Shown: positions 18,506 to 29,245 of the stretch, in pieces
Position numbering within the stretch: position 1 is the first letter of the stretch
Layout of the letters: each line of letters begins with the position of its first letter
Assembly: GCA_947085095.1 (NCBI GenBank)
Contig: CAMTVD010000035.1
Span: 1 to 64,000, forward strand
Direction: 5' to 3'
Length of the DNA stretch: 64,000 bases
Origin: an uncultured Thermus sp.
GTDB taxonomy: Bacteria > Deinococcota > Deinococci > Deinococcales > Thermaceae
Made by a program: the position numbers and the translations under genes
Notes under the pieces: generated by a model
The model's database searches: none
Seen by the model: the letters and a program-made list of their open reading frames with translations, nothing else
What the model was told of the DNA's origin: nothing

Positions 18506-19123
18506 TTAGGGCGCGGGCGCCAAGCCCAGGTGGAGGAGGTACCGGGCCTGGCCCTCTTCCTGGCGAACTGGGGAGAGGGCGGCGTACCTCTGGTAGAGCC
18601 CAAGAAGCTCCCGCTGTAAGGCCTTGGCCTCCTCCCGGCGAAGGTAGAGCCCGGCGCTCCACAGGTTAACCAGCGGAGGAAAGGCCTCCGCCAGAATGTC
18701 GGGCTCCTCCACCCCGGCCCACTCCAAAAGCCCTTCCGGATTCAGGAAAACCCGGAGGGTGGCTCCGTGGCCGGGCCCCATGTGGGCGAGGGCCCTCCTC
18801 CACTCCGCTTCCCAGCTCCTGGCGGCCTCGAGGGCCTCCAGGAGGCGGGGAGGGACCAGGCGCGCGGGGATGCGGAAGTCCGTGTCCACCGCCCGGTAGA
18901 GCCGGATGGGTCTCCCCCGGCGGGAAAGACGTCCCACCTCCTCCAGAAGCCCCGCCTTCCGGAAGAGGGCCACCCGGTAGTGGGCCTGCTGCAGGGAAAG
19001 CCCCCGGGCCTCGGCCAGGTCCTTGACCCGGGCCGGGCCCTTCAGGAAAGGCTTGAGGCAAACCGCCATCTCGGGATCGGCCAGGAGGCGTGCGGCTAAC
19101 GGGTTGTCCACCTGGAAAGGCAC
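18506..19123 (-). CDS. ArsR-like winged-helix transcriptional regulator
   Basis: N-terminal HTH (VKDLAEARGLSLQQAHYRV...GLL...RRGRPIRLYRA); divergent from an MFS gene. Confidence 0.75.
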   Translation of the reverse strand: MPFQVDNPLAARLLADPEMAVCLKPFLKGPARVKDLAEARGLSLQQAHYRVALFRKAGLLEEVGRLSRRGRPIRLYRAVDTDFRIPARLVPPRLLEALEAARSWEAEWRRALAHMGPGHGATLRVFLNPEGLLEWAGVEEPDILAEAFPPLVNLWSAGLYLRREEAKALQRELLGLYQRYAALSPVRQEEGQARYLLHLGLAPAP

Positions 19124-19125
19124 GG

Positions 19126-19161
19126 CTCTACTCTAAAGCCCTCCTTGCGGCTGGAGTAGAG
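19126..19161. promoter_or_regulatory. Inverted repeat between regulator and MFS (candidate operator)
   Basis: CTCTACTC-N20-GAGTAGAG. Confidence 0.4.
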
Positions 19162-19180
19162 GGGCGGGAAAATTGAGGCC

Positions 19181-20440
19181 ATGCGGGGCTTCGCCGCCTT
19201 CCGGGTGCTCTGGCTGGGCCAGGCCCTGGCCCTTGTGGGCCGGGAGATGACCTGGTTCGCCCTCACCCTCTACGCCTACCAGAAGACGGGCCAGGCCACC
19301 ACCCTCTCCCTCATGGGCTTCTTCCACTTCCTCCCCCTCATCCTCCTCTCCCCCCTGGCGGGGGCTTTGGTGGACCGCTACCCAAGGAAGTGGGCCATGC
19401 TGGCCGCTGACCTGGGCGGGGGGCTGGCCACGGGCTTCCTCCTCTTCCTGTTCCTCCTGGGCCGTCTCGAGGTCTGGCCCCTCTACCTGGTCTCCGCCCT
19501 CACGGGGGCCCTCTCCAGTCTCCACTGGCCCGCCCTCTCCGCCGCCTTGTCCGCCATGCTGGAGAAGAGGGACTACGCCCGGGCGAGCGGCATGATGAGC
19601 CTGGCGGAGTCCCTGGCCGGGGTGGGGGCCCCCATCCTGGCGGCAGCCCTCCTCAAGCCCCTGGGGCTCGGGGGAATCTTCGCCCTGGACCTCCTGGGGG
19701 CAAGCGCCGCGGTCCTCAGCCTTCTCCTGGTGCCCATCCCCAACCCAAGACTAGAGGTCCCGGAAAAGGCCTCCTTGGTGCAGGAAGCCCTCTTCGGGTT
19801 CCGCTTCATCCTGGAAAGGCCTTCCCTCCTCGGGCTCCAGCTCATGTTCTTCGGGATCAACTTCCTCACCACCCTGGGGACCGCAGTCCTTCCGGCCATG
19901 ATCCTGGCCAAGACGGGGTTTTCCGAGGCGGCCCTCGCCCTGGTCCGATCCGCCTCGGGGATCGGCGGGGTGGCGGGGGGGCTTTTCCTCTCCCTGTGGG
20001 GCGGGCCCCGGAAGCGGGTCCACGGGGTCTTCCTGGGCATGGCTCTCTCCAGCCTGGCCCTGGCCCTTATGGGGGCGGTGGAGGGGCCCTCCGCCTGGGC
20101 GGTCCTGGCCTTCCTGGGGAGCTTCTTTATCCCTGTGCTCAACGGATCCAACCAGGCCATCTGGCAGGCCAAGGTGCCCCTTTCCGTCCAGGGCAAGGTT
20201 TTCGCCGCGAGGCGCATGATCGCCTGGTTCGCCAACCCCCTGGCCATGCTCCTCGCGGGACCTCTGGCCGACCGGGTCTTCGGCCCCCGGTACGGGCAGG
20301 GAGAAGGCATCGCCCTCATGCTCCTCCTCTTCGGGGGCATGGGGGTGTTTTGGGGGCTTTCCGGCTACCTCCTCCCCAAGGTGCGGGAAGCGGAAAGCCT
20401 CCTCCCCGACGCCAAGGAGGACCAGGCAGCCGCGCTATGA
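19181..20440 (+). CDS. MFS transporter (macrolide-efflux/DHA3-like)
   Basis: LWLGQ, GALVDRYPRK motif A, QAKVP..QGKVF, about 12 TM helices. Confidence 0.88.
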   Translation: MRGFAAFRVLWLGQALALVGREMTWFALTLYAYQKTGQATTLSLMGFFHFLPLILLSPLAGALVDRYPRKWAMLAADLGGGLATGFLLFLFLLGRLEVWPLYLVSALTGALSSLHWPALSAALSAMLEKRDYARASGMMSLAESLAGVGAPILAAALLKPLGLGGIFALDLLGASAAVLSLLLVPIPNPRLEVPEKASLVQEALFGFRFILERPSLLGLQLMFFGINFLTTLGTAVLPAMILAKTGFSEAALALVRSASGIGGVAGGLFLSLWGGPRKRVHGVFLGMALSSLALALMGAVEGPSAWAVLAFLGSFFIPVLNGSNQAIWQAKVPLSVQGKVFAARRMIAWFANPLAMLLAGPLADRVFGPRYGQGEGIALMLLLFGGMGVFWGLSGYLLPKVREAESLLPDAKEDQAAAL

Positions 20441-20526: not shown

Positions 20527-22005
20527 ATGGGCAAGCCTCTCCTCGCCCCGGCCCTCCGCCTCCTGGAGGAGGGGAAGGATGGGGAGGCCCTGGCCCTGCT
20601 CCAAAGCGCCCAAGAAGCCCTCCCGGAGGCCGAGCGCCTGGCCCTCCTCGGCTTCCTGGAGGGGAGGCGGGGGAACCCCGAGGCCTACCGGACCCTGGCC
20701 CTGGAGGCCGCCCGAAAGTCCCAGACCCCCCGCACCCTCTACCACCTGGGCCTGGCCCTGCCCCCGAGGGCGGGCGCCCTGGCCCTGGAGGAGGCCTTCT
20801 TCCGCTTCCAGGGGGACCCCAAGGGGGAGGCCCGGCTCCACCTGGCCTTAGCCATCGCCCTGGAGCGCCTGGGCCGGCCCCAGGCCCTGGCCCACGCCGC
20901 CCTCGCCCGCCTCAAGGACCCCTCCCCCTGGACCACCCTCCACCATTTGCGCCTGGAACTCCTCTTCGGCGACCTCCCCCTTTCCCAGGTCCTGGAGGAG
21001 GCGGAGCCCTTTCTCCTCCACGAGGCCCGGGGCGTGAGAATCCTGGCGGCCCACACCCTGGCCCTGGCCCACCTCCTCCGGGGAAGCCCCAGGCGGGCAA
21101 GAAACCTCCTCCGGGGTCTCCTCCCCCTCTTGGGGCCCCAGAGTCTCGCCAGCTTCCTGGTCCTCGGGGCCCTGGCCCTGGACCCCCCTGAGGTCCGGCT
21201 CCTTCTGGAGGGGGCCCGGGCCTTCCTCCCCCGGGAGGGCTGGCCCTGGGGCTTTTACCTCCTCGCCCGGGGGCTTGGGGAGGGGGATGCGGCCTGCCTC
21301 CTCGCCGCCCACGGCCTCTTGCGGGAGGACGGGGCCCCCTACGCCCTCCTGGCCGAGGCCCGCCTGAAGGCCCTCGGGGTGGTGGTGGAAGCCCCCCTGG
21401 CCCCGGGGCTTGCCCCTGGCCTCCGCCCAGAGGCCCGGGCCTTCTTCCTGGGCCCAGCCGAGGTGCCCCTCCTTCGCCTCCTCGGGGGAGGCCCCTTTCC
21501 TTCCCTGGGCCCCAGGGGCACCGAGGCCCTGGCCCTCCTCCTCGCCCGCGAGGAGGGCCTACCGGGGGAGGCCCTGGCGGAGGCGCTTTACGGGGAGCCC
21601 AACCTGGGGGCCCTGAAGGCCCTCCTCCACCGCCTGCGGGAAAAGGGCTTCCGGATCCTCTGCGCTCCTTACCGCCTGGAAAACCCTCCCCCCTCCGACC
21701 TTTTGGCCTTCATCAGGGCCCTCTCTCGGGGAGGTATAGAGGAGGCCCTGGCCCTCTACCGGGGCCCCCTCCTCCCCTGGAGCCAGGCCCCGGGGGTGGA
21801 GGAACTCCGCCTGGAGCTGGAGGAAGCCTTGAGGCAAGCGGTGCTCGCCAGCGGGAGGCTAGACCTCCTCCTCACCCTGGCCGAACGCCTGGGAGAGGAC
21901 CTGGAGCTCTGGGAAACCCTTCTGGAGAGGCTCCCGCCCCAGGACCCCCACCGCCCCATCGCCCAGGCCCGGGTGGCGAGGCTCCGCCGGGAGTATGGCG
22001 TGTGA
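20527..22005 (+). CDS. Helical-repeat (TPR-like) + winged-helix/BTAD-like transcriptional activator
   Basis: Leu/Ala-rich helical N-terminus; C-terminal LRLLG..EALALLL..EGL..EALAEALY..LK..LHRLR..PYRL..D....ALALYRGPLLP.S..P (SARP-like); TAGGCT 6 nt before ATG. Confidence 0.75.
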   Translation: MGKPLLAPALRLLEEGKDGEALALLQSAQEALPEAERLALLGFLEGRRGNPEAYRTLALEAARKSQTPRTLYHLGLALPPRAGALALEEAFFRFQGDPKGEARLHLALAIALERLGRPQALAHAALARLKDPSPWTTLHHLRLELLFGDLPLSQVLEEAEPFLLHEARGVRILAAHTLALAHLLRGSPRRARNLLRGLLPLLGPQSLASFLVLGALALDPPEVRLLLEGARAFLPREGWPWGFYLLARGLGEGDAACLLAAHGLLREDGAPYALLAEARLKALGVVVEAPLAPGLAPGLRPEARAFFLGPAEVPLLRLLGGGPFPSLGPRGTEALALLLAREEGLPGEALAEALYGEPNLGALKALLHRLREKGFRILCAPYRLENPPPSDLLAFIRALSRGGIEEALALYRGPLLPWSQAPGVEELRLELEEALRQAVLASGRLDLLLTLAERLGEDLELWETLLERLPPQDPHRPIAQARVARLRREYGV

Positions 22006-22110
22006 GGCCGGGGGGAAGCAGCTCGGGTCCCAGCAGGCCAAAACGGGCCCGGAAGGCCGGGCAAGGAGGAGCCAGCCCAGGAGGAGAAGCCAAAGAGCCT
22101 TGCCCCTCAT
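21859..22110 (-). CDS. Small putative secreted peptide precursor (MRGKALWLLLLGWLLLARPSGPVLA-CWDPSC...)
   Basis: Basic n-region, hydrophobic h-region, V-L-A cleavage-like site; TG-n-CACCCT 6 nt before ATG; 3' part overlaps the regulator antisense. Confidence 0.5.
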   Translation of the reverse strand: MRGKALWLLLLGWLLLARPSGPVLACWDPSCFPPASHAILPAEPRHPGLGDGAVGVLGREPLQKGFPELQVLSQAFGQGEEEV

Positions 22111-22116
22111 GCCCCC

Positions 22117-22229
22117 AGGGTGCCACAAGGGTGGTTACGCAAAGGGCCAAGGGTTACGCGAGGTTACGCGGGAAGTTGGCCGTGGAACCCCTTCCACGTA
22201 ACCTCGCGTAACCTACCCCCTGCTACCCT
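22117..22229. promoter_or_regulatory. Divergent promoter pair with five GTAACC/GGTTAC boxes
   Basis: GGTTAC at 22133, 22152, 22162; GTAACC at 22198, 22208; GCGTAACC-N10-YACCCT on both strands. Confidence 0.7.
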
Positions 22230-22257
22230 GGGGCTAACCCGGAAGGGGGTGAAGGGG

Positions 22258-23214
22258 ATGATCAAGGAAGTACAGGAAGTCAAGGTCGGCGGCCGGACGC
22301 GGCGGGTGCACGTGCGGCCCTTCGCCTGGGGTTTGCAGAATCCTTCTCACATGGAGTGGACTCCTGAAGGGAGGCTTTTGGTTTCTGAGCACACCGCGGG
22401 TACCATTCGCGACATTACGGAGGGGGGCGATGCTTCGGAGTCCAAGCCTTTGGCTTTTAATCTTCGAGGTCCTGCTGCTATTCGCCCTACCGAGGAGGGA
22501 AAGATCCTTGTCGCAGAAACTTGGGGAGGGGCCATCACAGATATCGCGGATGGAGGTGACGCGACGAAGCTGCCTAAAATAGCTGTCAATCTAAAGGGTC
22601 CCTACACTATAGCCGTTCTGAAAACGAAAAAAGGAGAAACGCTCTTCTTTAGCGAGAATCACTCTAGATTCATGACACAGATCACCCGTCTGAATCTTGA
22701 CCGCTACATTGAGCCCGAAGCCTTCATCACAGACATACCCGCCCGACATGGAGAGCCTGGTTTGACCCCGCCGCAGTCCTGGCCTGAAGAATGGGAAAAG
22801 TACGCAGCGGCCGGATGCGTGAAAAATTGGGTTGACGATGGCTCTGGACAAATCTTCCACCTTGCTGTGGGAAGCTTAGGCCAGATCTTCCGCATAGATC
22901 CAGACGAGATGCCGGAGCAAATGACCTACTCTGAGTTGGTTGCCTATCCAGGTGCCTTGGTGGCCTGGGGGCTTCATCGCCTGGGGGGGATGCGTCTTCA
23001 TCCCCCCTCCGGACTACTCTTTGCCGTTCAACCTGAAATGGGGGAAGTCATAGCGGTAGATACTGCCAAAGAAGGCAATTATCACTTCCAGCCCCCCATC
23101 GTAAGGGGATTAAGAATGCCTACTTGCGTAAGGTTCTCCCTGGACTTTGACAAGATGTACGTTTGCTCATCTGCTGATGGTGTGGTCTGGCAAGTGGAGG
23201 GCTTTCTGGATTAG
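22258..23214 (+). CDS. Beta-propeller (NHL-like repeat) protein, cytoplasmic
   Basis: About 43-aa blade repeats (GLQNP..EGRLLVSE..G.I.DI..GGDA / NLRGP..EGKILVAE..G.I.DI..GGDA); lower GC; G-rich RBS before ATG 22258. Confidence 0.75.
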   Translation: MIKEVQEVKVGGRTRRVHVRPFAWGLQNPSHMEWTPEGRLLVSEHTAGTIRDITEGGDASESKPLAFNLRGPAAIRPTEEGKILVAETWGGAITDIADGGDATKLPKIAVNLKGPYTIAVLKTKKGETLFFSENHSRFMTQITRLNLDRYIEPEAFITDIPARHGEPGLTPPQSWPEEWEKYAAAGCVKNWVDDGSGQIFHLAVGSLGQIFRIDPDEMPEQMTYSELVAYPGALVAWGLHRLGGMRLHPPSGLLFAVQPEMGEVIAVDTAKEGNYHFQPPIVRGLRMPTCVRFSLDFDKMYVCSSADGVVWQVEGFLD

Positions 23215-23220
23215 CTTATT

Positions 23221-24357
23221 GTGTTCCTACTCACCGCTATCTTGTTTTTAGTCAGCTTTGCTGGGGGGGCGGTAGGTACCGCAGCCGCCCTTTATCTCGC
23301 CCGTCTGGATAACCCCCTGTACCTGGGCTTGCAGCATGCCATCGGCTGGGGAGTTTCCGTCTTGGCCCTTCTCACGGGGTACCTCCTAGACCGGATAGAT
23401 CGCAAAAAGGCTCTTGTCTTCGGGCTCCTCTCCGAGAGTTTGCTGCGCTTCCTCTTGGGGATAAGCCTCGGCTTTCTTGGCCCTTGGGCTTTCCTTGGCC
23501 TCTATCTGGCAGGCAGCGTCCTCGGGCTCTTCCTGGAGGTCCGGGTTCTCGTTCCTAGGGTCGTGCCAGAGGAGCGGGAGAAGGCCCACGGGCGCCTTTC
23601 CACAGCAAGCCTCCTGGCCGATCTTTTCGGCGCCCCCTTGGGCGCGTTCCTCTTCGTCCAGCACCCCTCCTGGCCCTTCTTCCTGGGGGGCGCGCTAGGC
23701 CTCCTTGCTCTTCCCTTTGCGGGGAGGCTCCCTCCCATACCGCCCCTTGGAAAGGCCTCGCCGGGAGTGCTGGCTGGCCTCAGGTGGCTGTATGAGGAAG
23801 CCTTTTTCCGCTGGCTGGCCGGACTGGTCATGGGAGCCAGCTTCCTCCGGGTCATGCCCTTTGCCCTCCTTCCCCTTTGGTCCATCCAGGCTGGGTACGG
23901 GCCTGTAGGGTATGGGCTCCTCAGCGCCGCCTTCTCCGTGGGCGGGGCGGTAGCAGGGCTTCTTACTGCGCAGCTTAAGGGAAGGAAGCCGCAAAGGGTG
24001 CTCACCTTCCTTTTTCTCTTGGACGCCGTGGCCATCCTGGGCCTGCTCTTCAAGCCCCCCCTACCCCTGGGCCTTCTCCTCGTGGCCATCCTGGGCATGA
24101 GCGCTATCCTCCTGGCGGTCCAGGAAGTGGTGCTGAGGCAGGCCATGGCACCGGATGCCCTGCTGGGCCGAGTAGGTGGTGGGATGAGATTCCTTACCGG
24201 TATGGCCGGACTTTGGGGAGCCCTTCTGGCAGGGGCAGCGGGGAGAGGGGTGGGCCTAGAGGGGGTCTATCTGGGAGCAGGACTTGGGTTTCTCCTCCTG
24301 GCACTGGCCGCCTGGACCCTCCTCGGCCGGAGGGCAGCATATGGATCCCTGAAGTGA
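23221..24357 (+). CDS. MFS transporter 1 of tandem array
   Basis: GYLLDRIDRK motif A, RQAMAPDALLGRV, hydrophobic helices. Confidence 0.82.
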   Translation: MFLLTAILFLVSFAGGAVGTAAALYLARLDNPLYLGLQHAIGWGVSVLALLTGYLLDRIDRKKALVFGLLSESLLRFLLGISLGFLGPWAFLGLYLAGSVLGLFLEVRVLVPRVVPEEREKAHGRLSTASLLADLFGAPLGAFLFVQHPSWPFFLGGALGLLALPFAGRLPPIPPLGKASPGVLAGLRWLYEEAFFRWLAGLVMGASFLRVMPFALLPLWSIQAGYGPVGYGLLSAAFSVGGAVAGLLTAQLKGRKPQRVLTFLFLLDAVAILGLLFKPPLPLGLLLVAILGMSAILLAVQEVVLRQAMAPDALLGRVGGGMRFLTGMAGLWGALLAGAAGRGVGLEGVYLGAGLGFLLLALAAWTLLGRRAAYGSLK

Positions 24358-25490
24358 GAGGGGGTGGGGAAGGTGGTCTGCACTTGAGACGGTTCCTCTT
24401 TGCCGAAGCTCTGAGAATCCTAGGGGAAGGCCTCTTCGCCCTTCCCCTCTTCGTCCTCTTCGCCCTCTCCGGAGGCCCCGCTTGGCAAGCCACCCTCCCC
24501 TTTGCCCTCCAGCGGATCGCCGGGCTCCTCGCCCTCCCCTTGGGGGTCTTGGCGGACAGGATCCCTAGGCGGGAGCTTTTGGCCGCTGCACTTACCCTTA
24601 AGGCGCTTATTGCCCTAGGTTTGCTCCTGAAAACCCCGATCTTGCTCGCCCTCTGCGGAGCCCTCTTCTTTACCCTTTCCACCCTGACGGGACTCACGGC
24701 CTCGGCCTACCTGGCGGACCTAGTGGGGCGGGAGGGTTTGGAAAGGGCCCGGGGCAGGGTAGGGGCAACCCACATCGCAGTGGACACACTGAAGGATCCC
24801 TTTGCGGGCCTCCTCCTTCTGGCCGAGGGCCTCCTCCTCCGCGGCCTCCCCGCCTACCCACCGCCCCAGGAGGCCAGGCGGGAGGGGATGGGCCTCAGGG
24901 CCCTTTTGGCCGGGGTGGGCTTTCTCTTGGCCGATGCCAGGCTCCTCCCCCTCACCCTTTACGCCCTGGCCCTGGGCTTCTTCTCCATCCTGGGCCTGGC
25001 CCTCCTCCCCCTGTTGGCCCTGGGAGGAGGCGTCCCGCCCGCGCTCTACGGGCTATACCCCTTGGGCCTCTCCTTCGGGGGCTTCCTGGGGAGCCTCCTT
25101 GCGGGGAGCGTGGGCCCTGGCCTTGGCATCTGGGGCGGACACGGCCTCAAGCTCCTGGGGCTTTGCGCCCTCTTCCTCCCCTTTCCCCTAGGCCTCCTGG
25201 GCCCCCTTTTGGTGGGGGCCGGGGGGGCCTTGGGCGGGGTCCACCTGCGGGCCTTTCGGCAGCGGCTTGCACCGGAGGCCCTCCTGGGCCGGGTGCAGGC
25301 GGGGGCCATCGCCCTGTTTTCGGCGGGGAACCTCTTAGGGGCCCTCCTCGCCGGGGTCCTGGGTGGGCTTGGGGCCCGGCTGCCCCTGGGCCTGGCCATC
25401 CTGGGCCTGGGGCTCCTCTTCCTTCTGGCCCTGGGACCCCTACACCCTTGGCGGCTGGAAGCCTTGCGGCGGGAAGGAGAGCGGCCATGA
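24354..25490 (+). CDS. MFS transporter 2 of tandem array (possible internal deletion)
   Basis: GVLADRIPRR, RQRLAPEALLGRV; GTGA overlap start (alternative TTG 24384). Confidence 0.75.
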   Translation: MRGGGEGGLHLRRFLFAEALRILGEGLFALPLFVLFALSGGPAWQATLPFALQRIAGLLALPLGVLADRIPRRELLAAALTLKALIALGLLLKTPILLALCGALFFTLSTLTGLTASAYLADLVGREGLERARGRVGATHIAVDTLKDPFAGLLLLAEGLLLRGLPAYPPPQEARREGMGLRALLAGVGFLLADARLLPLTLYALALGFFSILGLALLPLLALGGGVPPALYGLYPLGLSFGGFLGSLLAGSVGPGLGIWGGHGLKLLGLCALFLPFPLGLLGPLLVGAGGALGGVHLRAFRQRLAPEALLGRVQAGAIALFSAGNLLGALLAGVLGGLGARLPLGLAILGLGLLFLLALGPLHPWRLEALRREGERP

Positions 25491-26632
25491 GGTCCGGTCA
25501 GGCCTTTCTAGCGGAGGCCCTGAGCGACCTCGGGGCCTCTATAGGCTTCAGCGCCCTCGCCCTGGAGGTAGCCCGCGCGGGGGAGGCTTTCTGGGTGGGC
25601 TTCTTTGCCGCCTTGGGCTACCTCACCCTGGGACCCCTTCTCCTCCTCAGCCCTTGGGTAGAGCGGCGGGGGGTGGCCCGGGCCCTCCTGGAGTTGCGCC
25701 TGGCCCGGGGCCTCCTCTTCCTCCCCCTCCCCCTCCTGCCGCGGGAGCCCGGCCTTTTGGTCCTCTACGCCTATCCCCTCATGGTCCTCACCGACCTGGC
25801 CATCGTGGCCTGGGAGGGCCTCCTGGTGCGGAGGGACCGGGGCAGGCTGGCGGAGCGGAGCGGCAAGCTCTACGCCGCCTGGGAGGTGGGAGGCCTGGTG
25901 GGGGTGGCCCTTGGTCCCATCCTCTTCGGCCTTCACCCCGCCCTCCCTTACCTCATTTCCGCCGGCATCCTCCTCCTGGCCTGGGCTTTTCTCCGCCCCG
26001 CCCTCATGGGGGAAGCTGAGGAGAAAAAAGCAAAAGCGAAGCCTGAGGGCCTGGGCCGGGCTCTTCGCCGCCTCCTGGCCCACACCCCCCTCAGACCCTA
26101 CCTCCTCATCTCGCTCCTCTTCACCCTGGCCCATGCCCTCACCACCGCCCTGCTGGGTCTTTTGGTCCTCCGGGCGGGCACTCCGGAAGCCCTTTTCGGC
26201 CTGGCCTTCGCCTTACAGAGCCTGGGCTACACCCTGGGAAGCTACGTTGCCGGGCGGGTCCCACCGGCCCTGGCCTTCAGGCTGGGCCCATTAGGGGCAG
26301 CCCTCGGGGGGATGGGCTTTCTCCTGCCCTTTCCTCTTCTCCTCGCTGCCCCTCCCCTCTTAGGCCTGGCCGTGGCCCTCCTCGGCACCCATCTGCGGGC
26401 GGTGCGGGGCTGGCTCCTGCCCAGGGAGGGCCTAGCCCCAAGCCTCGCCGCCATCCGGGCCCTCCTCTACGGGGCCGGGGCCCTGGGGGGCCTGGGGGCA
26501 GGGGTACTTGGCAGGGAGAGTCCAGCCCTACCTCTCCTCCTAGGAGCCGCGGGATTCCTGGCCCTTCTCTCTTTTGCCTTAGGGCCTCTCCACCCTAAGC
26601 GGCTGGAAGCCTTGAGGCAAAAGGCGGAGTGA
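25487..26632 (+). CDS. MFS transporter 3 of tandem array
   Basis: ATGA overlap; PWVERRG degenerate motif A; C-terminus similar to MFS 2. Confidence 0.75.
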   Translation: MRSGQAFLAEALSDLGASIGFSALALEVARAGEAFWVGFFAALGYLTLGPLLLLSPWVERRGVARALLELRLARGLLFLPLPLLPREPGLLVLYAYPLMVLTDLAIVAWEGLLVRRDRGRLAERSGKLYAAWEVGGLVGVALGPILFGLHPALPYLISAGILLLAWAFLRPALMGEAEEKKAKAKPEGLGRALRRLLAHTPLRPYLLISLLFTLAHALTTALLGLLVLRAGTPEALFGLAFALQSLGYTLGSYVAGRVPPALAFRLGPLGAALGGMGFLLPFPLLLAAPPLLGLAVALLGTHLRAVRGWLLPREGLAPSLAAIRALLYGAGALGGLGAGVLGRESPALPLLLGAAGFLALLSFALGPLHPKRLEALRQKAE

Positions 26633-26635
26633 AGC

Positions 26636-27772
26636 GTGAGAAGCATGCAACTAAACTTTCTCCTCGCCCTCGAGGCCCTCCGCCTCTTCGGGGCGGGGTT
26701 TTTCTACTTCACCCACGGGGCGCTGGCGGCCCTGGGGGCGGTAGGTCCCTTGGGGGCCAGCCTGGCCCTGACCCTCCGGTTCCTGGCGGAACCCCTGCTC
26801 GCCCTCCTCGCCGGGGCCTGGGCGGATCGGTGGCCTAGGCAGAGGCTTCTCGTGCTGGCAGCCCTGGGCCAGGGGGCCCTCAGCCTGGCCCTCCTCGCCC
26901 TCGGCACGAGCCTCCTCCCCCTCTACGCCCTGGGCTTCCTCTTCGGGGGGCTGGAGGTGGTGCGGATGGTGGCCGCGGGGGCCCTCTTCGCCGACCTCCT
27001 CCCCAAGGAGGCCCTGGTGCGGGCCCGGGGCCAGCTCAATGCCCTCTACACCCTGGCCGATGCCCTCTCCGACCTCCTGGCGGGCCTCCTCTTCACCCGA
27101 AGCGGGAGGCTTACCGCGGCCCTGGGGAGCGGCCTCCTCTTCCTGGCCGCCGGGCTCTACCGGGCGCTTCCTCTCCCCCAAGGGCCCACGGGGCGGCCCG
27201 AGGGGGGAAGCCTCCTCGGGGTCCGCTTCCTCTGGGAAAGCCCTCCCCTGAGGCGGCTCCTCCTGGCCGAAGGGGCCCTGGGCCTGGCCTTTGCCCTCTT
27301 TGCCGGCCTCCTTCCCTTCCTGGTCCTGCGGGGCCTGGGGGAGGCCCCCTGGGTCCTGGGCCTCCTGGGAACGGCCCTGAGCCTGGGGAGCGCCCTGGGG
27401 GGGCTTCTGGTGGGCGCGGCCCTGGCCCGGCTGGGGGAGGAAAGGGCCCTGGGGTCTGCCCTGCTCCTTTCCGCCCTGGGCCTCCTGGGGGCAGCCCTCC
27501 TTCCCCCCTGGCCCCTGCTCCTGGTCTTCTGCCTCCTTCTGGGCGGGGGAAGCGCCGCCTTCGCCGCCATCGCGGGCGCGGTGCGCCTGAGCCAGGCCCC
27601 CCCGGAGCTCCGGGGCCGGGTGGCGGGGGGCTTCCTCTTCCTCACCGGCCTCCTCACTCCCTTGGGGCCGGCGCTTGGAGGGCTGTTGGCTGAGATGTGG
27701 CTTCCCCTCCCCTTCCTCCTTTCGGGCCTCCTTCTGGCCACGGTCCCCTTTTTGGGCAAGGGGAGAACGTAA
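26636..27772 (+). CDS. MFS transporter 4 of tandem array
   Basis: GAWADRWPRQ, SQAPPELRGRV; alternative ATG 26645. Confidence 0.82.
   Translation: MRSMQLNFLLALEALRLFGAGFFYFTHGALAALGAVGPLGASLALTLRFLAEPLLALLAGAWADRWPRQRLLVLAALGQGALSLALLALGTSLLPLYALGFLFGGLEVVRMVAAGALFADLLPKEALVRARGQLNALYTLADALSDLLAGLLFTRSGRLTAALGSGLLFLAAGLYRALPLPQGPTGRPEGGSLLGVRFLWESPPLRRLLLAEGALGLAFALFAGLLPFLVLRGLGEAPWVLGLLGTALSLGSALGGLLVGAALARLGEERALGSALLLSALGLLGAALLPPWPLLLVFCLLLGGGSAAFAAIAGAVRLSQAPPELRGRVAGGFLFLTGLLTPLGPALGGLLAEMWLPLPFLLSGLLLATVPFLGKGRT

Positions 27773-29168: not shown

Positions 29169-29245
<77 letters not shown>

Follow-up and report, generated by a model that had tools for sequence, protein, structure and literature searches.

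The window analysed here, a stretch of 64,000 nucleotides (nt) from an uncultured Thermus sp., carries at positions 20527-27772 a regulator gene, a small convergent gene for a two-cysteine peptide with a signal-like N-terminus, and an operon of a beta-propeller gene followed by four tightly packed membrane-protein genes ending at 27772. The locus lies on contig C35 of a metagenome-derived assembly of 41 contigs and 2.08 Mb. The regulator, the peptide gene and the bidirectional promoter between peptide gene and operon form a module that we hold to be real with high confidence, and the regulator probably acts at the repeat boxes of this promoter. The best reading is that the module acts like a receptor-peptide pair of the RRNPP type but stands outside that family by its architecture. 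The output domain of the regulator is of the SARP type, yet the domain order differs from that of SARPs and the SARP profiles (hidden Markov models) do not recognize it. Taken as a whole, a peptide-responsive activator working like an RRNPP pair is a tentative reading, for which our confidence stops a little short of even. The fuller proposal is possible and is put forward with somewhat more reserve: a C-x4-C-x-P-P pheromone, exported through Sec and closed by a disulfide, would be sensed by an activator joining tetratricopeptide repeats (TPR) to a SARP domain, would be the first RRNPP-like cell-to-cell signal outside Bacillota, and would gate swappable gene cassettes in Thermus, Meiothermus, Calidithermus and Truepera.

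Long antisense open reading frames (ORFs) are common in DNA of about 70% G+C, as found here, and the small ORF was therefore tested by several routes. The ORF starts with an ATG at 22110 on the minus strand, stops at 21859-21861 and shares 147 nt with the 3' end of the regulator gene. An antisense frame without coding function, kept open by high G+C content and by the conserved regulator end and promoter, would produce such an overlap beside a highly conserved promoter. The pattern of variation makes this explanation very improbable. In the orthologous loci, the part of the ORF outside the regulator occurs in five lengths (99, 105, 108, 117 and 126 nt), each divisible by three, so all insertions and deletions stay in frame. 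Among 12 copies, the synonymous share of differing codons is highest in the small-ORF frame (333 of 824, versus 98-266 of about 760-824 in the five other frames), and the third codon positions of this frame vary most (23 versus 16 and 14). Copies without an overlapping regulator (G018, G007:C15 and G014:C55; L, G and C numbers denote our loci, genomes and contigs) retain the whole ORF. In other genera, the motif is encoded by unrelated nucleotide sequence in ORFs that barely overlap the regulator. Gene callers also predict the ORF in records of Meiothermus, Calidithermus, Truepera and T. thermophilus. A collection of 5.8 billion proteins contains 16 such calls, all annotated as hypothetical and none with a Pfam family. 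One of the small proteins, Mlute_01947, adjoins the regulator homolog Mlute_01948. Parts of 21500-22376, the small-ORF stretch among them, are covered by contigs (80-99% alike) from four RNA libraries that belong to three studies. These are contigs of relatives without strand, ends or proof of transcription and are not counted as evidence, and the uncovered propeller body is equally uninformative.

The small ORF is kept in 16 of 17 orthologous loci, all from genomes of the same genus. The frame is shifted in the copy at G020:C106, where the cargo is truncated as well, which indicates a decaying locus. Among 36 related loci, the 31 with a match covering the 3' end of the regulator were examined (28 from Deinococcota and three actinobacterial), with five truncated loci excluded from the count (L090, L108, L109, L112 and L113). 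An ORF with a signal-like N-terminus and a C-x4-C-x-P-P core lies downstream of the regulator in 21 of the 28 Deinococcota loci, and two of the other seven have less than 210 nt of downstream sequence. The three actinobacterial loci, which match the C-terminal domain only, contain no small ORF. Regulators at 37-58% identity in Thermus, Meiothermus, Calidithermus and Truepera are accompanied by convergent small ORFs that follow this design with different sequences. The search pattern was set after the first cases had been seen, and a genome-wide scan served as control. Across all six frames of the 2.08-Mb genome, the locus itself gave the only match. A pattern found once in this genome and yet recurring beside homologous regulators in four genera exceeds chance. 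An initial annotation of this DNA had described the ORF as resembling a signal-peptide precursor and had named the lack of such an ORF beside homologous regulators as a refutation. The idea survived this test, and the indels, the codon pattern and the recurrence mark the ORF as a gene. The same annotation named CWDPSCFPP as the peptide to pair with the regulator, and a product of nine residues ending at CFPP has to be given up because no stop codon is found there and the ORF runs for 83 amino acids (aa).

The residues C26, C31 and P33 are invariant in 17 aligned peptide sequences from four genera. By inspection, the pre-peptide starts basic, continues with a run of 10-17 hydrophobic residues and mostly shows A-x-A right before the first cysteine, which would fit the pattern for Sec export and signal peptidase I. 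At this junction, Thermus paralogs have ...LA followed by CLDLGCWPPRG, ...PQ followed by CLAPHCPPL and ...PG followed by CFRSECMPPGH. The Meiothermus peptide has ...AYA before CTRPDCLPPGAVR..., the Calidithermus peptide ...AYA before CARPDCFPPG... and the Truepera peptide ...TYA before CKSPDCLPPS.... Most loops between the two core cysteines contain Asp or Glu, and the position between the second cysteine and the PP is hydrophobic. Several paralog ORFs stop 2-4 residues past the PP, and the long tail of the peptide in the window is thus probably dispensable. The core (C-x4-C-P-P-L in one paralog) superficially resembles the disulfide loop and tail of animal nonapeptides of the oxytocin/vasopressin type, which would be convergence at most.

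The regulator was modelled with AlphaFold2 (AF2) from 33 homologs at a mean pLDDT of 89.1. The model is all-helical up to about residue 308 and continues with a helix-turn-helix (HTH), a beta-hairpin and a helical bundle. In structural alignments (VIA-align), the top match of residues 1-305 is domain III of MalT (Z 21.6, rmsd 3.8, 297 residues aligned). Peptide receptors follow, namely the phage phi105 Rap protein with its peptide (Z 20.5), AimR (Z 18.7), NprR-NprX (Z 17.4) and PlcR-PapR (Z 12.2), with further Rap proteins also lower in the list. Residues 308-492 align with the SARP domain of AfsR (8hvr_J; Z 11.9, rmsd 4.8, 185 residues aligned, 24% identity), and at fold level they contain a winged helix followed by a BTAD, as is typical of SARPs. 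The TPR and SARP-type matches agree with the initial description of a 492-aa protein with a helical-repeat N-terminus and a winged-helix/BTAD-like C-terminus. SARPs carry their DNA-binding domain at the N-terminus, whereas that of the regulator sits at 308-492 behind the TPR domain. RRNPP proteins have an N-terminal HTH or effector domain and a C-terminal TPR domain, and the regulator has the reverse order with a SARP-type DNA-binding domain. Foldseek with the whole model against the Protein Data Bank (PDB) returned generic TPR proteins only, and sequence and profile searches of the PDB returned designed TPRs and noise. Feature-neighbour proteins carrying Trans_reg_C or BTAD families score only 0.88-0.89 against the regulator. 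The precomputed Pfam family of the regulator and most homologs is PF27103 ('YTH3_C'). Orthologs share 77-87% identity and paralogs about 50%. The family occurs across Deinococcota in 2-4 copies per genome, with longer forms of about 820 aa, and its most conserved part is the C-terminal third.

The promoter region consists of two mirror arms of 28 nt (22113-22140 and 22206-22233), each with a box, 7 nt and a TGnnACCCTGGGG element, TG-n-(T/C)ACCCT. Judged from its sequence, the promoter appears mirror-symmetric and bidirectional, with GCGTAACC direct repeats likely replacing the -35 element on each side about 7 nt before an extended -10. The tandem GTAACC-N4-GTAACC has two matches in the 2.08-Mb genome, both at the locus. 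Across orthologs, the boxes are invariant and the spacers drift. The layout of box, 7 nt and TGnTAnnnT on both sides, with an additional 6 nt and the ATG on the peptide side, recurs in 12 loci of four genera. The box sequence tracks the regulator lineage (GTAACC, GTGACG or GGT(A/T)ACC), and the peptide gene of relatives is often preceded by three repeats about 21 nt apart. The initial annotation had assigned the small ORF and the propeller-MFS operon (MFS, major facilitator superfamily) the same promoter architecture, and the mirror arms and their conservation across genera agree with this. Direct repeats at the -35 position near a -10 are a feature of SARP promoters, and binding of the regulator to the conserved repeats on both sides is predicted. 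AfsR binds direct repeats that overlap the -35 and lie 8 nt upstream of the -10 (PMC11301090), and the layout at the locus matches this arrangement. A sigma-70 consensus scan of 21800-22400 gave no promoters, as expected for promoters without a -35. The distance of 6 nt between the -10-like element and the ATG suggests a leaderless mRNA for the small gene. Elements of the -10 type adjacent to ORFs and the leaderless mode are common in Deinococcus-Thermus, as far as the part of PMC12340547 available to us reports. No credible RNA family was found by Rfam in the intergenic region, and the sole match above the gathering score is a tRNA at 29169.

Features of the regulator-peptide locus and its cargo operon, with positions in the window
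Feature	Position	Strand	Basis
Regulator gene, 492 aa, TPR sensor fused to SARP-type activator	20527..22005	+	ORF, orthologs, AF2 model, domain matches
N-terminal TPR-like superhelical sensor domain, aa 1-305	20527..21441	+	structural alignment (VIA-align)
C-terminal SARP-like domain, aa 308-492, OmpR-type winged helix and BTAD-like helical bundle	21448..22002	+	structural alignment (VIA-align)
Small gene, 83 aa and stop; signal-peptide-like aa 1-25, core C26-x4-C31-F-P33-P34, variable Pro/Gly-rich tail	21859..22110	-	ORF, conservation, codon pattern
Codons for conserved core CWDPSCFPP, aa 26-34	22009..22035	-	C, C, P invariant in 17 aligned sequences, four genera
Putative leftward core promoter, TGGCACCCT (extended -10-like), 6 nt, ATG	22111..22125	-	sequence; layout in 12 loci, four genera
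Three GCGTAACC boxes oriented toward the peptide gene (plus-strand GGTTACGC at 22133, 22152, 22162)	22133..22169	-	motif scan, orthologs
Two CGTAACCT boxes at 22197 and 22207, 10 nt apart, facing the cargo operon	22197..22214	+	motif scan, orthologs
Rightward extended -10-like TGCTACCCT, 7 nt past the proximal box	22221..22229	+	sequence, conserved layout
Shine-Dalgarno-like GGGGGTGA ahead of the propeller ATG	22245-22252	+	sequence
Six-bladed beta-propeller, 318 aa, no signal peptide, low G+C (G+C at third codon positions, GC3, 0.58), first cargo gene	22258..23214	+	AF2 pLDDT 91.1, Foldseek/VIA
MFS transporter 1, 378 aa	23221..24357	+	Pfam MFS_1, E 1e-16, above cut-off
MFS-like transporter 2, TTG start chosen by ortholog comparison	24384..25490	+	MFS_1 23.4 bits; TIGR00900 E 3.9e-10
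MFS-like transporter 3, 381 aa, start overlaps stop of transporter 2	25487..26632	+	MFS_1 22.3 bits
MFS transporter 4, 378 aa	26636..27772	+	MFS_1 E 8.7e-25, MFS_3, TIGR00900 E 2.7e-32

Comparison of the relatives' loci shows that the genes behind the rightward promoter are exchanged. The flanks are constant in other Thermus genomes, with an aldo-keto reductase gene and a GlcD-like oxidase gene placed around the regulator, peptide gene and promoter. The propeller and four MFS genes, counted as part of the regulon in the initial annotation, are not a fixed part of it but one of several swappable cassettes behind the same promoter. Other propeller and MFS pairs in Thermus relatives share only 39-43% identity with those of the window where they are full-length. 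Further Thermus relatives carry a 494-aa radical SAM/SPASM enzyme with an MFS transporter, a 479-aa radical SAM enzyme with an ABC-2 transporter, a QueC-like PP-loop enzyme with an ABC transporter, or a 182-aa protein with a 592-aa ABC exporter. One Thermus locus has a C39-like peptidase and a PQQ-type propeller as cargo, and the Calidithermus cargo includes a LanM-like protein with DUF4135, the domain that forms the dehydratase portion in lanthipeptide synthetases of class II. The GC3 of the first cargo gene is low, with a value of 0.47-0.66 compared with 0.8-0.95 for other genes, and this holds in four genera and for unrelated enzyme classes (including L032-L050 and L099-L110). The low GC3 might stem from exchange with a pool of lower G+C content or from selection on expression. 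In some Thermus and Meiothermus loci, the first cargo gene encodes a protein of 182-222 aa with several conserved cysteines and no Pfam family (L033 2152-2700, minus strand; L099 3233-3886), and an ABC exporter gene (about 590 aa) comes next in every case.

Several genomes contain two or three cassettes, and every one of these stands behind a separate copy of the rightward promoter. At the loci L034 (G015), L037 (G018), L044 (G026) and L049 (G017:C19), the promoter is present in 2-4 copies per locus, each before another propeller and MFS cassette. Some of the duplications include the last 78 nt of the regulator and the complete small ORF, and the unit of duplication thus seems to be the small ORF, promoter and cargo together. 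A paralogous regulator with 51% identity, encoded outside the window in the same genome (C18:47014-48438, minus strand, G000), has no peptide gene, and the stretch of about 200 nt that holds the gene in relatives (e.g., L091) is missing. Its promoter, with GTTACC-N7-TGCTACCCT, heads a 62-aa remnant of a radical SAM gene in which the beginning is fused to the SPASM end, and ABC-2 transporter genes come next. This paralog may be an 'orphan' receptor.

From the genes, folds, motifs and their co-conservation, we infer DNA binding, activation, secretion, processing, re-import and a role of the peptide as ligand of the regulator. The SARP domain of the activator would bind the repeats and recruit RNA polymerase, as SARPs do. 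Activation would switch on both the peptide gene, through a leaderless mRNA and as positive feedback, and the divergent cargo operon. The pre-peptide would be exported and cleaved just ahead of Cys26, and a disulfide would probably close a loop of six residues. The mature peptide might then accumulate outside the cell and return as the ligand of the TPR sensor. Several points weigh against this proposal, above all at the step of peptide sensing. Binding of the peptide by the regulator is not supported by any tool result or experiment, and the predicted complex of residues 1-310 of the regulator and residues 26-60 of the peptide scored 0.02 (mark 0.32), which speaks neither for nor against binding. 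Domain III of MalT, the closest structural match of the TPR domain, is a sensor for a small molecule and not for a peptide, so the fold does not show that the ligand is a peptide. No import route for the peptide was identified. Family members without a peptide gene, including C18:47014-48438, show that the peptide is not obligatory for the family. On the output side, hmmscan found no match of residues 315-492 to Trans_reg_C (PF00486) or BTAD (PF03704) up to E=10. A cysteine that is invariant at the first mature position is also a hallmark of lipoproteins. In a weak scan of four short stretches from two radical SAM cassettes, no separate precursor ORF was found, and the small ORF could hence be the substrate of the enzyme.

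Two rival accounts of the peptide were weighed. The small protein might be a co-regulated exported or envelope product, such as a tiny lipoprotein, a membrane-anchored protein, a metal- or redox-active cysteine peptide or an antimicrobial, with the TPR domain sensing a small molecule or another protein. The position of the invariant cysteine right behind the signal sequence, the top match of the TPR domain to the MalT sensor domain and the family members without a peptide gene all speak for such a product. Lipoproteins carry a lipobox, with the consensus [LVI][ASTVI][GAS]C, where the signal sequence ends. The residues ahead of the invariant cysteine (A-L-A, A-Y-A, V-P-G and V-P-Q) appear not to fit this consensus, and A-L-A, A-Y-A and T-Y-A would better suit a signal peptidase I site. 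The product left after removal of the signal sequence is only 9-11 residues long in several paralogs, which is too short for most structural roles. The small gene is tightly co-inherited with the regulator in several genera, and its own promoter has a box of the regulator type, as would rather be predicted for a signal-receptor pair. An envelope product is unlikely, if well short of negligible.

Somewhat less likely still is a peptide that serves as substrate or product of the cargo, similar to a peptide made by ribosomes and modified after translation (RiPP), and that is exported by the MFS or ABC transporters while the regulator senses something else or the finished product. The cargo of relatives includes typical parts for peptide maturation and export (Radical_SAM with SPASM, DUF4135, C39-like peptidase and ABC exporters), the two radical SAM cassettes scanned offer no other precursor, and the core has two cysteines with Asp or Glu in most loops. 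However, the same core is found beside at least five unrelated enzyme classes, and one precursor for all of them is improbable. The N-terminus is strongly hydrophobic and of the Sec type, unlike a RiPP leader. The peptide gene takes its position from the regulator, with which it converges and whose 3' end it often overlaps, and not from the enzymes, and the cargo in the window has no recognised peptide-modifying enzyme.

The proposed peptide-responsive activator shares features with several known systems. The RRNPP quorum-sensing pairs known from Bacillota and phages of these bacteria (Rap-Phr, NprR-NprX, PlcR-PapR, AimR-AimP and Rgg-SHP) have a cytoplasmic receptor built as a TPR superhelix, which the sensor domain resembles in fold (Z 12-20), as it does MalT domain III. 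In these pairs, too, a small gene next to the receptor encodes a pro-peptide for secretion. Regulator-type boxes in the peptide promoter suggest feedback as in RRNPP systems. In contrast to these pairs, the sensor comes first here and the DNA-binding domain last, and the latter is a SARP domain (winged helix and BTAD) instead of an N-terminal HTH. The invariant two-cysteine peptide core, the occurrence in Deinococcota and the lack of detectable sequence similarity are further differences. A term search of the text of a large RRNPP survey (PMC10075063) returned neither Thermus nor Deinococcus. AfsR of Streptomyces coelicolor, whose SARP domain aligns with the C-terminal 185 residues of the regulator, also contains a TPR domain. 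AfsR has its SARP domain at the N-terminus and a STAND ATPase between SARP and TPR, whereas the regulator starts with the TPR domain and has no ATPase. We know of no SARP with a partnered secreted-peptide gene.

Streptococcal shp/rgg radical SAM operons, such as that for streptide, place a peptide-sensing TPR regulator and its short peptide gene next to genes for an exporter and a radical SAM/SPASM enzyme, which is the kind of cargo also carried by relatives of the locus. The streptococcal operons differ in regulator family and peptide type, and the cargo of the Deinococcota module varies, with a propeller and MFS genes in the window. Within Thermus itself, DnrS of T. thermophilus is an activator whose sensor is N-terminal and whose BTAD is C-terminal (PMC5748679). 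In the accessible part of that source, the sensor is a GAF domain tied to oxygen and nitrate respiration, and neither a TPR domain nor a partner peptide is described. The layout had been regarded as lacking a characterised precedent. This stands for the combination, as neither a TPR-SARP regulator paired with a peptide nor a paper joining 'RRNPP' and 'SARP' was found in the literature searched (subscription journals and supplements lay outside the search). It does not stand for sensor-first BTAD activators, since DnrS is already known in Thermus from what PMC5748679 provides.

The cargo genes of the window are only partly defined. The propeller gene was named correctly in the initial annotation, as judged by the confident six-bladed model. 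Its fold matches, with the RPA3624 lactonase (Z 26.3) among them, are tied at Z 24-26 across SGL lactonases, PQQ dehydrogenases, NHL domains, Vgb lyase and other propellers, so that no function can be assigned. The propeller scores 18.7 bits against Pfam Vgb_lyase (cut-off 50), and a sequence search of the PDB gave no match. The count of four MFS genes was only partly confirmed. The first and the last gene pass MFS_1, and the two middle ones remain below its gathering cut-off of 33.4 bits though they are related to transporters 1 and 4. Transporter 2 shares 38% identity with transporter 4, and transporters 2 and 3 have 9 and 7 transmembrane-like segments, respectively.

Additional genes surround the locus. 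Upstream of the regulator, the plus strand carries a fifth MFS gene (19181-20440), which is of the Mef/EntS type and has no GTAACC boxes ahead of it. This gene adjoins the regulator in several orthologous loci and is broken in others (L002 and L011). A 205-aa protein with weak HTH_20/MarR-like matches is encoded upstream of the regulator on the minus strand (region 18506-20440). Downstream, the tRNA gene noted above (29169-29242, Rfam, 65.5 bits) is located just past the GlcD-like oxidase gene, which forms the border of the variable island. A pair resembling an AbrB/SpoVT-type antitoxin and a PIN toxin was seen by eye in or beside the variable island of relatives (L034 6964-7604, L037 7223-7866, L031 8788-9380 and L099 621-1300) and is absent from the window.

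Cytoplasmic TPR receptors for genetically encoded peptide signals are commonly seen as particular to Bacillota and their phages, and SARPs as a device of actinomycete antibiotic clusters. In a thermophilic phylum that branches deeply, the module described here joins a receptor-like TPR domain, a SARP output and a secreted-type two-cysteine peptide. With the peptide as ligand, peptide quorum sensing would be wider in range and more varied in architecture than known so far. The two boxes and the -10 would then provide a compact, thermostable and peptide-inducible promoter for Thermus genetics and biotechnology, and carriers of the module include the cultivable T. scotoductus DSM 8553 and T. parvatiensis RL as well as a T. 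thermophilus record, in which the small protein has 53 aa. The module would also give an entry to the uncharacterised exchanged cargo, such as the propeller with MFS, radical SAM with MFS or 182-aa protein with ABC cassettes. Should the proposal hold, hot-spring Deinococcota would swap 'social' cargo for peptide modification, export or detoxification behind one conserved switch.

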